In this document: piece after piece, positions 48,580 through 56,308 of the stretch
Layout: the number at the start of each line of letters is the position of its first letter
Position numbering within the stretch: position 1 is the stretch's first letter
From: Escherichia coli
GTDB lineage: Bacteria > Pseudomonadota > Gammaproteobacteria > Enterobacterales > Enterobacteriaceae
Length of the DNA: 64,000 nt
Reading direction: 5' to 3' (one strand)
NCBI RefSeq assembly: GCF_044324785.1
Contig: NZ_CP172127.1
The notes under the pieces: model-generated
Told to the model about the DNA's origin: nothing
The model's input: the letters and a program-made list of their open reading frames with translations, nothing else
The model's database searches: none
Made by a program: the position numbers and the translations under genes

Positions 48580-49498
48580 TACGTTATTAACGTTACGCGA
48601 CGTCCATATCAATTTCCCGGCCCGAAAAAACTGGCTTGGTAAAACTACGGAACATGTTCATGCCATCAATGGTATTGATTTACAGATCCGTCGTGGTGAA
48701 ACCTTAGGGATCGTCGGTGAGTCAGGCTGCGGCAAAAGCACCCTCGCACAGCTTTTAATGGGTATGCTGCAACCTAGCCACGGGCAGTACATCCGTTCAG
48801 GATCACAACGCATTATGCAGATGGTGTTTCAGGACCCGCTCTCTTCGCTCAATCCGCGCTTACCGGTGTGGCGCATCATCACAGAACCGCTCTGGATTGC
48901 TAAGCGTAGTAGTGAACAACAGCGGCGAGCGTTGGCAGAGGAGCTGGCTGTGCAGGTGGGTATTCGTCCGGAGTATCTCGACCGCTTGCCTCATGCGTTC
49001 TCTGGCGGGCAGCGGCAACGTATCGCCATTGCCAGAGCACTCTCTTCGCAGCCTGACGTGATTGTGCTTGATGAGCCAACCTCGGCGCTGGATATCTCCG
49101 TGCAGGCGCAGATCCTCAATTTACTGGTAACGCTACAGGAAAATCGCGAGCTGACTTATGTGCTGATTTCACACAATGTCTCGGTGATACGTCATGTGAG
49201 CGATCGGGTGGCGGTGATGTATCTCGGGCAGATTGTGGAACTAGGAGACGCGCAACAGGTGCTAACGGCTCCGGCACATCCGTACACCCGATTATTGCTG
49301 GACTCCCTCCCCGCCATTGATAAACCGCTGGAGGAAGAATGGGCATTACGTAAAACGGATCTACCAGGAAACCGTACGTTGCCACAAGGCTGTTTTTTCC
49401 GCGAACGCTGCCCTCTGGCAACCCACGGATGTGAAGTCCGGCAATCATTAGCAATAAGGGAGGACGGACGTGAGATCCGGTGCTGGCGGGCGCTGTAG
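48572..49498 (+). CDS. ddpF: D,D-dipeptide ABC transporter ATPase DdpF
   Basis: Walker A GESGCGKST, signature FSGGQRQR; ORF opens at 48518 inside ddpD; GTG at 48572 gives the 308-aa product (VSDTLLTLRDVHINF...) I recall for DdpF. Confidence 0.85.
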   Translation: MSDTLLTLRDVHINFPARKNWLGKTTEHVHAINGIDLQIRRGETLGIVGESGCGKSTLAQLLMGMLQPSHGQYIRSGSQRIMQMVFQDPLSSLNPRLPVWRIITEPLWIAKRSSEQQRRALAEELAVQVGIRPEYLDRLPHAFSGGQRQRIAIARALSSQPDVIVLDEPTSALDISVQAQILNLLVTLQENRELTYVLISHNVSVIRHVSDRVAVMYLGQIVELGDAQQVLTAPAHPYTRLLLDSLPAIDKPLEEEWALRKTDLPGNRTLPQGCFFRERCPLATHGCEVRQSLAIREDGREIRCWRAL

Positions 49499-49513
49499 GA
49501 CGCGGCATCCGGC
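49495..49513. repeat. REP-like motif GTAGGACGCGGCATCCGGC at the ddpF-side boundary of the inserted block
   Basis: Overlaps the ddpF stop codon; resembles one arm of an E. coli REP unit; its 12-mer GCGGCATCCGGC recurs (one mismatch) in the palindrome at 56287-56308. Confidence 0.45.
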
Positions 49514-49534
49514 TATTGCATGTCTGCGGAAACG

Positions 49535-50425
49535 TTATGCGTCATAGGTTTTTTTTAACGTTTCCATCAACGCCTGCGCCGCAGTAGAAAGCTTATGGTG
49601 TGACGAACGCAGTACGCCTACTCGTCGCTCAATCACTGGATTATCCAGTTCCAGACACACTGCGCCCAGTTCGCTCATCTGCCTGCGGCACAGCGCAGGC
49701 ACAGCGCTTCCTCCCAAACCGTTTGCCACCAGCCGCCCAACCGTAACCAGTTGATGGCTTTCCAGCGCCACTTCCAGTTGCGTTCCACTTTGTGCCAACT
49801 GCTCCTCCAGCATCAACCTGACGGCTGACGGTCGCTGGAGGGTGATAAAATCGAGCGTCAGCAAATCCCGCCAACTCACGCGTTGCCGATTTGCCAGTCG
49901 TGAATCGGCTGGAACAATAGCGACAAACCGATCCACGCCCAGTGGGGTAAAATGCACATGGCCGCAATAGTCAGGTTCAAAGGCAATACCCATCTCCACA
50001 CGCCCTTCGCTCACCATTTCGATCACCTGCTCATTCACCACATCGTGCACGGTGACATTAATCCCTGAATAACAATCGCGGAAGGTTTTCAGCACCGGAG
50101 GCAGAACGTTGGCTGCAAATGACGGCATCGCTGCCACCGAGACTTTGCCCCGCCTGAGCGTGAATCGCTGACGCATGGCCTCCTCAGTGTTATCCCAGTC
50201 AGCCAGCAAAGGCCGTGCCATCGACAATAGCGTTTCCCCCTCCTGGGTTAATGTCACTTTTCGCGTAGTACGCAGCAGTAAAGCGCCCCCTAAGGCATCT
50301 TCCAGTCCTTTAATGGCAAGACTTAGCGCAGGCTGCGACATATTCAGCCGTTCACTGGCATGGGCAAAGTTCAGAGTGTGAGCTACCGCTAAAAACGCGC
50401 GTAACTGTTTGATGCTCATTTTCAT
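49535..50425 (-). CDS. LysR-family transcriptional regulator, divergent from the catabolic operon
   Basis: 296-aa ORF with N-terminal LysR HTH (...LNMSQPALSLAIKGLE...) and substrate-binding domain; 141-bp AT-rich divergent intergenic region. Confidence 0.85.
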   Translation of the reverse strand: MKMSIKQLRAFLAVAHTLNFAHASERLNMSQPALSLAIKGLEDALGGALLLRTTRKVTLTQEGETLLSMARPLLADWDNTEEAMRQRFTLRRGKVSVAAMPSFAANVLPPVLKTFRDCYSGINVTVHDVVNEQVIEMVSEGRVEMGIAFEPDYCGHVHFTPLGVDRFVAIVPADSRLANRQRVSWRDLLTLDFITLQRPSAVRLMLEEQLAQSGTQLEVALESHQLVTVGRLVANGLGGSAVPALCRRQMSELGAVCLELDNPVIERRVGVLRSSHHKLSTAAQALMETLKKTYDA

Positions 50426-50566
50426 CTGGCACTCCGTTAACCTACTGAATACATTTAATTAACATTATATTGATAAATAATACAAATGAATGAGTCACAA
50501 ATTTAAAATTAACAAATCATTTTTTGCCCTTAATGATGTTGAAAAGGACAACTGGAGGGCAACTGT
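50426..50566. promoter_or_regulatory. Divergent promoter / operator region between the LysR gene and the CoA-transferase operon
   Basis: AT-rich 141-bp spacer with several T-N11-A-type dyads (e.g. around TTAATTAACATTA); layout typical of LysR-controlled operons; inferred. Confidence 0.4.
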
Positions 50567-55498: not shown

Positions 55499-55509
55499 GG
55501 AAAATCATC

Positions 55510-56280
55510 ATGAATTTACAAGGTAAAACTGCGCTGGTGACGGGCTCCACCAGCGGTATCGGACTCGGTATTGCTCAGACACTGGCAAACGCTGGCGCGC
55601 AAGTGATCCTCAACGGCTTCGGTGATGTTGACGCGGCAATCAATGCGGTTTCTCGTATGGGTAAAACGCCTGGCTATCATGAGGCAGACCTCAGCGATGA
55701 ATCGCAAATTATCAACATGATGGCCTACGCACGGCGGGAATTTGGCGGTGTGGACATTCTGGTGAATAACGCAGGGATCCAGTATGTCTCCCCGGTTGAA
55801 TCTTTCCCTGTAGAAAAATGGAACGCCATTATCGCTATCAATCTCTCTTCTGTCTTTCACACCACGCGTCTGGCACTGCCAGAAATGCGCACTCGTAACT
55901 GGGGTCGGATCATTAACATTGCCTCTGTGCATGGGCTGGTAGCGTCGAAAGACAAATCAGCTTATGTTGCGGCAAAACATGGCGTGGTGGGACTCACAAA
56001 GACCATTGCTCTGGAAACTGCGCAGACGGGTATTACCTGCAACGCGCTCTGCCCTGGCTGGGTGCTGACGCCGCTGGTACAACAGCAGATTGATAAGCGC
56101 ATTGCGCAAGGCGAAGATGCGGAAAGCGCGCGTGACGCCTTACTGGCAGAAAAACAGCCTTCTCGTGAATTTGTGACTCCGCAACAACTGGGTGAACTGG
56201 CGCTGTTTCTCTGTTCGGATGCGGCAGCACAAGTGCGTGGGGTGGCGTGGAATATGGATGGCGGTTGGGTAGCGCAGTAA
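55510..56280 (+). CDS. Short-chain dehydrogenase/reductase, 3-hydroxybutyrate dehydrogenase (BdhA)-like
   Basis: 256-aa ORF with SDR cofactor motif TGSTSGIG, NNAG and catalytic Y-x3-K (YVAAK); begins 11 nt after the permease. Confidence 0.8.
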   Translation: MNLQGKTALVTGSTSGIGLGIAQTLANAGAQVILNGFGDVDAAINAVSRMGKTPGYHEADLSDESQIINMMAYARREFGGVDILVNNAGIQYVSPVESFPVEKWNAIIAINLSSVFHTTRLALPEMRTRNWGRIINIASVHGLVASKDKSAYVAAKHGVVGLTKTIALETAQTGITCNALCPGWVLTPLVQQQIDKRIAQGEDAESARDALLAEKQPSREFVTPQQLGELALFLCSDAAAQVRGVAWNMDGGWVAQ

Positions 56281-56286
56281 GTGTTC

Positions 56287-56308
56287 GCCGGATGACGCGT
56301 CATCCGGC
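56287..56308. repeat. Perfect 22-bp palindrome GCCGGATGACGCGTCATCCGGC (REP-like hairpin / bidirectional terminator) between convergent bdhA-like gene and osmC
   Basis: Perfect inverted repeat read in the sequence 6 nt after the SDR stop and 6 nt before the osmC stop; arm nearly identical to the motif at 49495-49513. Confidence 0.6.

Follow-up and report, generated by a model that had tools for sequence, protein, structure and literature searches.

How should a block of seven genes that lies between ddpF and osmC, is bracketed by short REP-like motifs and is missing from K-12 be read? At first sight it resembles an acquired island, and a first-pass annotation of the window (the whole 64,000-nucleotide stretch of Escherichia coli DNA that we analysed) described it as an inserted block; yet it is probably the reference strain that carries a deletion. 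Our preferred reading, which we hold with reasonable though not complete confidence, is that the 6.8-kb segment is an ancestral operon, lost from most E. coli by one old deletion that ended in two REP-type units. The right unit is a complete hairpin, and the left one a decayed half unit. The biology is ordinary overall, with REP-type sequences of a known kind.

Both ends of the block lie in short spacers between convergent genes. On the left, 36 bp (49499-49534) separate the ddpF stop codon TAG (49496-49498, + strand) from the stop codon of a LysR-family regulator gene on the minus strand (49535-49537). On the right, 34 bp (56281-56314) separate the TAA of a dehydrogenase gene (56278-56280) from the stop codon of osmC (56315-56317). 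The left spacer holds GCGGCATCCGGC at 49502-49513; the right spacer holds a perfect 22-bp palindrome, GCCGGATGACGCGTCATCCGGC (56287-56308), which forms a REP-type hairpin (9-bp stem, 4-nt loop) outside any gene, with 6 nt between it and either stop codon. These motif positions, the palindrome and the spacer lengths had all been given correctly in the first-pass annotation. The core that it saw at both junctions is there as well, but the likeness is longer than it noted: over 15 nt, the REP-like half unit GACGCGGCATCCGGC (49499-49513) and GACGCGTCATCCGGC (56294-56308) agree at 14 positions in direct orientation. Across the 64-kb window, exact GCGKCATCCGGC is found at the left site, in both arms of the palindrome and nowhere else. 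With up to one mismatch it has 4 matches against 0.89 expected, a count that none of 100 shuffles reached. The window contains no further match to the 22-mer at three or fewer mismatches, and at up to six the sole other related site is the left junction itself (49492-49513, 4 mismatches).

What does the block encode? We identified its genes from NCBIfam matches above curated cutoffs together with RefSeq names. The LysR-family regulator (49535-50425, minus strand) is divergent from an operon of six genes on the plus strand: subunits A (scoA, 50567-51274; TIGR02429, 244.8 bits against a cutoff of 128.5) and B (scoB, 51277-51933; TIGR02428, 327 against 243.55) of a 3-oxoacid CoA-transferase, an acetyl-CoA C-acetyltransferase or thiolase (51943-53148; TIGR01930, 501 against 240.55), a 3-hydroxyacyl-CoA dehydrogenase family protein (53138-54061), a GntP-family permease (54107-55498; the RefSeq name in homologous loci) and a 3-hydroxybutyrate dehydrogenase (55510-56280; NF009093, 371 bits against 258). 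Beyond them lies the peroxiredoxin gene osmC (56315-56746, minus strand). With a BdhA-type dehydrogenase, both CoA-transferase subunits and a thiolase all above their curated cutoffs, the block has the gene content of a 3-hydroxybutyrate/acetoacetate catabolic cluster. The presumed substrate of the permease is 3-hydroxybutyrate, which would be taken up, oxidized to acetoacetate, activated to acetoacetyl-CoA and cleaved to acetyl-CoA. All seven genes are metabolic or regulatory, and none encodes an integrase, a transposase or an IS, in keeping with the earlier statement that the block is not an obvious mobile element. Our literature search found no paper linking ddpF or osmC with a 3-hydroxybutyrate cluster.

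The block is present in 231 of 5426 complete E. coli genomes (about 4%), always on the chromosome, and it lies between ddpF and osmC in every E. coli locus that we inspected. Carriers include O145:H28 and the porcine strain PCN033. We rejected carriage on plasmids or mobile elements: the plasmid collection yielded only four Klebsiella records, which match about 52% of the block at ~73% identity.

Is the occupied or the empty state the older one? About 20 Citrobacter species, each judged from its representative genome, have the same seven genes at this position (ddpD-ddpF, the seven genes, osmC), and so do two cryptic Escherichia lineages. The Escherichia comparison is without alleles of E. albertii, E. 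fergusonii and E. marmotae, and the sample does not fix the age of the deletion. Nucleotide identity between the window and Citrobacter is 74-81% for the block genes, 73-81% for ddpC, ddpD and ddpF, and 81-82% for osmC, and GC content is 50-55% in block and flanks alike. We take the K-12 state to be a deletion because the synteny is found elsewhere, block and flanks have diverged equally and there is no GC anomaly; the same observations overturn the description of the block as inserted. Nor does it have the features of a genomic island, since it lacks mobility genes, matches its flanks in GC content and occupies one fixed locus in all the E. coli, cryptic Escherichia and Citrobacter examined. 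The operon and its LysR regulator would thus have held this position before Escherichia and Citrobacter split, and most E. coli would have lost them in one old deletion. Since then, homologous recombination in the flanking core genes has probably moved presence and absence alleles between Escherichia lineages: the flank haplotypes of occupied and empty strains are interspersed, and the block of E1V33 is 98% identical to that of E. coli, whereas its flanks are 92-94% identical.

The K-12-type allele lacks 6,789 bp (49504-56292) and has in their place a 27-nt filler, TAACAACGCATCAGGCAWTCACGCGCC. This junction is found, in single copy, in 5104 of the 5426 genomes (about 94%). Homology between the window and the empty allele stops at 49503 and restarts at 56293, so that the breakpoints of the common empty-site allele do fall inside both motifs, as the first-pass annotation had supposed. 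At the left boundary, TAGAGACGC is followed by GGCATCC in an occupied allele (L041) and by TAACAAC in an empty one (L004). All empty alleles align from 56293 onward. The expectation that the motifs would be found at empty sites holds for one side: the right 16 nt of the palindrome (56293-56308) are kept, but the left motif is mostly gone, with GACGC alone remaining.

Does the junction look like simple recombination between the two motifs, as had been proposed? It does not. A search with a synthetic motif-to-motif junction found no such product among the 5426 genomes; the best matches were all in two pieces and spanned 34 nt more than the query. Direct repeats (14/15) surround the block, but the empty site is not colinear with them, and no clean single-copy site was found. 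The empty site is also not a pre-insertion target, because its 27 nt are absent from the occupied allele.

The filler itself has no evident source. Local alignment to both strands of the block did no better than shuffled sequences (66 of 200 were as good), and no genome contains a second copy. By eye, comparison with the left spacer of L009 and with the spacer of L048, an Escherichia-like lineage, brought out no clear origin. We also considered target-site duplication by a small inserted element (GACGC on each side of the filler); the 28-nt insert is repeated nowhere, and we dropped the idea. One part of the filler, ACGCATCAGGC, repeats the adjacent GCCTGACGCGT in inverted orientation at 10 of 11 positions. 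Filler and retained palindrome half together would again form a strong hairpin at the deletion junction, and the K-12 spacer is computed to fold into a 16-bp hairpin (-29.7 kcal/mol).

Did the motifs cause the deletion? Illegitimate recombination between REP-like hairpins, for example when replication stalls at a hairpin and switches template or when gyrase cleaves REPs, could have left the filler as a by-product and would make the operon prone to precise loss. REPs have been reported where chromosomal duplications are joined and as sites that gyrase binds. Both homology boundaries lie inside the motifs, few bases from the hairpin centres, and the inverted copy in the filler fits such a route. 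The position of the breakpoints is nevertheless weak evidence for mechanism, because the spacers measure just 36 and 34 bp and any deletion leaving ddpF and osmC intact has to end in or near the motifs; we estimate the probability of coincidence by chance at roughly 0.3. Moreover, the left unit forms no hairpin, the direct product of recombination between the repeats was not seen, and other deletions in the region (L043, L007, L006 and an allele without ddp) end inside genes, not at REPs. In favour of a causal role, ddpF adjoins osmC in L048 with a different junction and a hairpin of its own, which may represent a second independent loss. It was the only different junction to come out of a search with divergent DdpF sequences. 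Four other candidates for alleles of other Escherichia (P0034, P0005, P0004 and P0019) all proved to belong to E. coli and to have the K-12-type junction; their DdpF divergence reflects poor assembly, internal ddpF duplications or introgressed ddpF. Only one deletion event is documented in the 5426 genomes, because virtually every empty E. coli has one and the same junction. We regard a causal role for the motifs as unproven, and a deletion driven by them as a possibility to be taken seriously though an unlikely one. A more elaborate version makes the operon an excision-prone cassette: hairpin stalling or gyrase produced the K-12-type deletion, a template-switch filler rebuilt the hairpin, L048 lost the operon a second time, and recombination across species has kept both alleles. 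This chain of events we consider doubtful.

The palindrome has a calculated free energy of -25.1 kcal/mol on the + strand and -22.3 on the - strand, and the two strands of the right spacer fold with z = -3.9 and -3.2; RNA structure in the left spacer is not significant (z about 0). Strong folding is seen in all 21 syntenic right spacers (z from -1.8 to -6.5) and in none of the left ones. Most of the 21 carry GCCGGAT...ATCCGGC, and this outer 7-bp stem is invariant in 18 units from 17 alleles (the window and 16 syntenic loci). The hairpin is kept even in the groups of C. amalonaticus and C. sedlakii, where the sequence is quite different.

What might this hairpin do? The suggestion that it acts as a bidirectional terminator holds in that a strong hairpin forms in both converging transcripts; it falters in that neither strand has a U-tract, the tails being AACGCUUUACG (+ strand) and GAACACUUACU (- strand), and a terminator scan did not call the palindrome. 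No Rfam family matches positions 49000-57300, even at E <= 1. A classical U-tract terminator is unlikely, and with no U-tract any termination would need the assistance of the hairpin or of Rho. Most likely the hairpin would serve both converging transcripts at the RNA level, as a 3'-end structure that limits read-through and shields the transcript end. REP325 is a precedent: it terminates transcription, in part through Rho, and stabilises mRNA (bioRxiv 10.64898/2026.03.23.713779).

Are the motifs true REPs? The consensus stem GCC[G/T]GATG...CATC[C/A]GGC has both arms in the right unit, the sole full match in 64 kb, and its 3' arm alone at the left site. Of the two, only the right unit forms a stable stem-loop. 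Together with the 14/15 match between them, this upholds the first-pass description of the motifs as REP-like and related. Their location is also typical: extragenic, near 3' ends and in convergent spacers. Of the REPs in E. coli, about 60% are situated between convergent genes, and about 30% of the spacers of such gene pairs contain a REP (bioRxiv 10.64898/2026.03.23.713779); a REP in this position is no more than 20 bp away from either ORF (PMC3733652). REP-like units probably stand at both junctions because both are convergent-gene spacers. We read both motifs as REP-type, with GCCGGATG...CATCCGGC as their outer stem, at the usual site a few bases from convergent stops; the right one is a complete, conserved hairpin and the left one a decayed half unit.

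The right palindrome could instead be a locally evolved bidirectional terminator hairpin that resembles a REP by chance, with the left motif a chance partial match, because it lacks both a GTAG tag and an internal bulge and occurs in one copy at BLAST stringency. Its flanks are GTGTTC and AACGCT, neither GTAG nor CTAC, although a terminal GTAG is conserved in over 90% of enterobacterial REPs (PMC3733652). The genome-wide search that the first-pass annotation recommended, made with the 34-nt spacer, found a median of one place per genome, the extras being the reverse-strand match of the palindrome itself; BLAST is blind to degenerate members of the family, and single copy is to be read at that stringency. 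Retention of the hairpin in every syntenic lineage, even where the sequence differs much, would also suit a locally evolved structure. Against a local terminator stand the lack of a U-tract on both strands and of a call in the terminator scan. Orthologous spacers of the C. freundii group have canonical REP architecture, GCCGGATAAGACG...CGCATCCGGC with the usual mismatches, and among the 18 orthologous units GTAG appears in one, the second of the two units of L014. A 14/15 match in a 36-bp spacer has a chance probability of about 2e-6, before allowing for base composition. We find local origin improbable. Published annotation says little here. The K-12 feature table lists genes only and is uninformative on REPs, because it also omits the canonical four-REP cluster between fdnI and yddM; in the REP supplementary tables consulted, osmC and ddpF are absent save as an expression row.

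The weakest reading, that this lineage acquired the block when recombination took place at a REP-containing spacer, the motifs being a duplicated or recombined target, can point to the direct repeat around the block, to the one full copy in empty sites and to E1V33, whose block is so much closer to E. coli than its flanks that the block can be imported between lineages; it is nonetheless very improbable and largely refuted already by synteny, given the gene order and flank-like divergence common to about 20 Citrobacter species, a block with neither GC anomaly nor mobility genes that turned up at no other site in E. coli and, in the plasmid collection, only in part in four Klebsiella records, 27 nt at the empty site that the occupied allele lacks, and a left motif in almost no Citrobacter left spacer.

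The flanking repeats, then, are ordinary hairpin sequences of convergent gene ends. A 3-hydroxybutyrate operon surviving in about 4% of complete E. coli genomes is now documented, and it could matter for growth on 3-hydroxybutyrate derived from the host or its microbiota. The locus also offers a clean natural case for two questions. Do REP-type hairpins guide deletion endpoints? And is a deletion tolerated only when a hairpin is restored between the converging genes?

Each part of the locus has known counterparts. Ketone-body catabolic clusters (BdhA, ScoAB and thiolase; compare E. coli atoDAEB) have the same three activities, here above family cutoffs; the block differs in adding a 3-hydroxyacyl-CoA dehydrogenase family gene and a GntP-family permease. 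As in other core-flanked presence/absence polymorphisms of metabolic operons, the locus is fixed, mobility genes are lacking, flank haplotypes are mosaic and the block is better conserved between lineages than its flanks; unlike them, the absence allele here appears to be derived, is dominant at 94% and has a junction with an unexplained filler. The right unit matches enterobacterial REP or palindromic units (the GTAG-3 family; Y-type units, BIMEs) in its outer stem, extragenic position and strong GC-rich hairpin, and its Citrobacter orthologues are canonical, with one GTAG-tagged pair; it departs from them in being a perfect 22-bp palindrome with no internal mismatch or bulge and no GTAG, and in being single-copy at BLAST sensitivity. 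The REP325-type 3'UTR regulators and bidirectional terminators, from which this hairpin differs in having no U-tract, likewise place one palindromic hairpin in two converging transcripts. As in that class, the position and strength of the hairpin are conserved, here across genera, and the K-12 deletion allele appears to have rebuilt one at the same place.

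Was the seven-gene block between ddpF and osmC (49495-56308) inserted, as the first-pass annotation had it? Synteny and divergence say otherwise. One representative genome per species was scanned with the 3-hydroxyacyl-CoA dehydrogenase protein as query, and 33 loci were returned. The order ddpD, ddpF, the seven block genes and osmC occurs in about 20 Citrobacter species and, identically, in two cryptic Escherichia lineages, Escherichia sp. E1V33 (locus L008) and L009. Nucleotide identity of the window to Citrobacter is 74-81% for the block genes, 73-81% for ddpC/D/F and 81-82% for osmC; because these values are similar, block and flanks have evidently diverged together since their common ancestor. 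Calling the block inserted was wrong: these comparisons indicate that it is ancestral and that the K-12 arrangement, in which ddpF adjoins osmC, is a derived deletion state. In Raoultella, Klebsiella, Serratia and Enterobacter the seven genes are found at loci other than ddpF-osmC.

The block encodes a LysR regulator on the minus strand, subunits A and B of 3-oxoacid CoA-transferase, an acetyl-CoA C-acetyltransferase (thiolase), a 3-hydroxyacyl-CoA dehydrogenase family protein, a GntP-family permease and a 3-hydroxybutyrate dehydrogenase. Scores for the transferase subunits, the thiolase and the 3-hydroxybutyrate dehydrogenase exceed NCBI curated cutoffs; the family protein and the permease bear the RefSeq names used in homologous loci, with which the names of the block genes agree. 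We infer that the block serves catabolism of 3-hydroxybutyrate and acetoacetate to acetyl-CoA. Its genes include no integrase, transposase or IS, bearing out the earlier reading, and GC content is 50-55% in block and flanks alike.

Of 5426 complete E. coli genomes, 231 carry the block; it is chromosomal in all of them and lies at ddpF-osmC in every carrier locus opened. Among the same 5426 genomes, 5104 hold one copy each of the 55-bp K-12 spacer or its right 44 nt, the form counted in strains also without the ddp operon (such as CFT073). A single junction is common to essentially all empty E. coli sites, which points to one deletion event. Occupied and empty alleles are exchanged by homologous recombination through the flanks, Escherichia lineages included, since ddpF and osmC haplotypes of the two kinds of strain intermingle right up to the junctions and since block and flanks disagree in E1V33. 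There the block (L008 6401-13140) is 98% identical to that of E. coli and nested within E. coli block diversity, where haplotypes are up to 3% apart (L041). Its left spacer is the same as in E. coli, whereas its flanks are only 92-94% identical, or 90-94% over ddpC/D/F and osmC; this indicates recent movement of the block between Escherichia lineages. E. coli strains differ to an unusual degree in ddpF itself (48572-49498), which is mosaic and 95-98% identical from strain to strain. In one wastewater E. coli contig (L051) osmC stands at 98.8% and ddpF at 82.8%, and the ddpF 3'-end haplotype of E1V33 is also found in strain EC1515 (L042).

Read directly from the sequence, the ddpF stop codon TAG (49496-49498, plus strand) and the stop of the LysR-family gene (49535-49537, minus strand) enclose a 36-bp left spacer containing GCGGCATCCGGC at 49502-49513. 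At the right, the TAA of the block's last gene (56278-56280, plus) and the osmC stop (56315-56317, minus) enclose 34 bp containing the perfect 22-bp palindrome GCCGGATGACGCGTCATCCGGC at 56287-56308, all as first described. The exact 12-mer core is confined to these junctions in the 64-kb window; allowing one mismatch gives 4 matches against 0.89 expected, and 4 were reached in 0 of 100 shuffles. When up to 6 mismatches are tolerated, the window holds a single relative of the 22-mer, namely the left junction (49492-49513, 18/22). The stretch truly common to both sites is 15 nt long, GACGCGGCATCCGGC (49499-49513) and GACGCGTCATCCGGC (56294-56308) being 14/15 identical in direct orientation. The sites are therefore related, not coincidental. 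The window's 64 kb hold no further full REP-pattern palindrome (REP, the repetitive palindromic unit of enterobacteria). In some carriers (L002 3513-3560 and L045 1500-1545, equivalent to window 49513-49550) a one-base change in a T-run just within the lysR 3' end causes a frameshift; the protein is 303 rather than 296 aa, and its coding sequence covers most of the left spacer, reaching the left motif.

Where does the empty allele break? The occupied allele L041 reads TAGAGACGC|GGCATCCGGC, and the empty allele L004, whose ddpF haplotype is near-identical, reads TAGAGACGC|TAACAACGC, so left homology stops at 49503, inside the left motif. On the right, the match of all empty alleles to the window begins at 56293 (TGACGCGTCATCCGGCAAYGCT), which places the break inside the palindrome's left arm. 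The empty allele lacks 49504-56292 (6,789 bp) and has 27 nt, TAACAACGCATCAGGCAWTCACGCGCC, in its place. This filler has no significant match to the block and no second copy in any genome; its ACGCATCAGGC repeats the adjoining GCCTGACGCGT in inverted orientation at 10/11 positions. The K-12 spacer is predicted to fold into a 16-bp hairpin (-29.7 kcal/mol, osmC-sense strand). In E. coli 32-4 (L003 990-1071) a tandem duplication of 17 bp, GCTGTAGAGATGCTAAC, spans the ddpF stop codon and lengthens the spacer from 55 to 72 bp; 3 of 30 evenly sampled genomes have it (record span 1057 vs 1040).

Alignment with K-12 and other strains thus agrees with the earlier proposal of loss at REP-like spacers as a description, both breakpoints lying inside the motifs. 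That the motifs caused the deletion is unproven. The position of both homology boundaries favors it, as does the filler's resemblance to a fold-back product. However, a synthetic-junction query did not find the product of simple recombination between the two 15-mers, its best matches all being two-piece and spanning 34 extra nt; the left unit does not fold; and 5426 genomes document one event alone. In spacers this short, we put at ~0.3 the probability that a deletion leaving ddpF and osmC intact would strike the motifs by chance. Moreover, other deletions in the region have their ends within genes and away from REP-like motifs. Three independent ones are a deletion that starts in the gntP interior, reaches a maeA remnant and takes out bdh, osmC, bdm and sra (L043 8594-9379); one that begins in dosC, crosses ddp and stops in the osmC 3' end (L007 7700-8175); and one within ddpF (L006 3573-4245). 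A third allele (L005 7833-8022, E. coli EC13, a type that CFT073 shares) also belongs here; in it the whole ddpXABCDF operon is gone and dosP adjoins osmC. The neighborhood is generally deletion-prone. The ddp-less allele keeps the K-12-type filler and a 62-nt ddpF-interior relic, 79% identical to 49007-49068, whose fusion to the filler makes a complete GCCTGATG...CATCAGGC palindrome; it therefore arose from the K-12-type deletion allele when more sequence was deleted. An Escherichia-like lineage (L048 10880-11000; Logan SRR26188688, a public sequencing run) may represent a second, independent loss, its placement coming from five genes; its genes are 75-85% identical to E. coli and slightly nearer Escherichia than Citrobacter. 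Its ddpF directly adjoins osmC across 23 nt, GGCGACGCCGGAGCAGCAATGCT, at a junction unlike K-12's; DdpF has an extended C-terminus, and a hairpin, GCTCCGGC...GCCGGAGC, overlaps the stop codon.

In its folded form the right palindrome has a GC-rich stem of 9 bp closed by a 4-nt loop (-25.1 and -22.3 kcal/mol for the two strands; z -3.9 and -3.2). Folding is strong in 21 of 21 syntenic right spacers of Escherichia and Citrobacter (z -1.8 to -6.5) and in none of the syntenic left spacers; the window's left spacer has structure no better than chance. Conservation across genera makes a bidirectional hairpin plausible. As to the suggested bidirectional terminator, the palindrome has no U-tract on either side and was not called in a terminator scan. 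Roughly 60% of the REPs in E. coli are situated between convergent genes, ~30% of convergent spacers contain a REP, nearly 40% of convergent-gene REPs are within predicted bidirectional terminators, and REP325 is a partly Rho-dependent terminator and mRNA stabiliser (bioRxiv 10.64898/2026.03.23.713779). REP-like units in both bounding spacers are the expectation for two convergent gene pairs, and on these rates need no insertion mechanism. Nothing here departs from ordinary biology: most E. coli have lost an ancestral metabolic operon, and the hairpins that bound it are of the kind typical in spacers between convergent genes.

How do these units compare with REPs? The motifs are related to each other and REP-like, and an outer stem, GCCGGAT/ATCCGGC, is invariant in 18 units from 17 alleles (the window and 16 syntenic loci). 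Citrobacter left spacers are mostly just 10-33 bp (55 bp in L019), nearly all without the left motif. In a cryptic Escherichia left spacer (L009 6339-6398), a 22-nt insertion beside a degenerate left motif yields a GCCTG...ATCAGGC (Z-type REP-like) unit, so REP-type sequence has entered the left spacer as well. Rfam gave no match in the region, and four canonical REP units clustered in the K-12 fdnI-yddM spacer (L046 17072-17346) are missing from the feature table. The terminal GTAG tag is found on >90% of enterobacterial REPs (PMC3733652). The E. coli right unit lacks it, has no bulge and, at BLAST sensitivity, is single-copy; we therefore describe it as REP-type or REP-derived and do not file it as a canonical member. 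In Citrobacter portucalensis two tandem REP units, of which the second has a GTAG tag, occupy the right spacer (L014 13138-13223), which shows that REP units turn over at the orthologous position. Units of the C. freundii group have the canonical architecture, GCCGGATAAGACG...CGCATCCGGC, with the usual internal mismatches.
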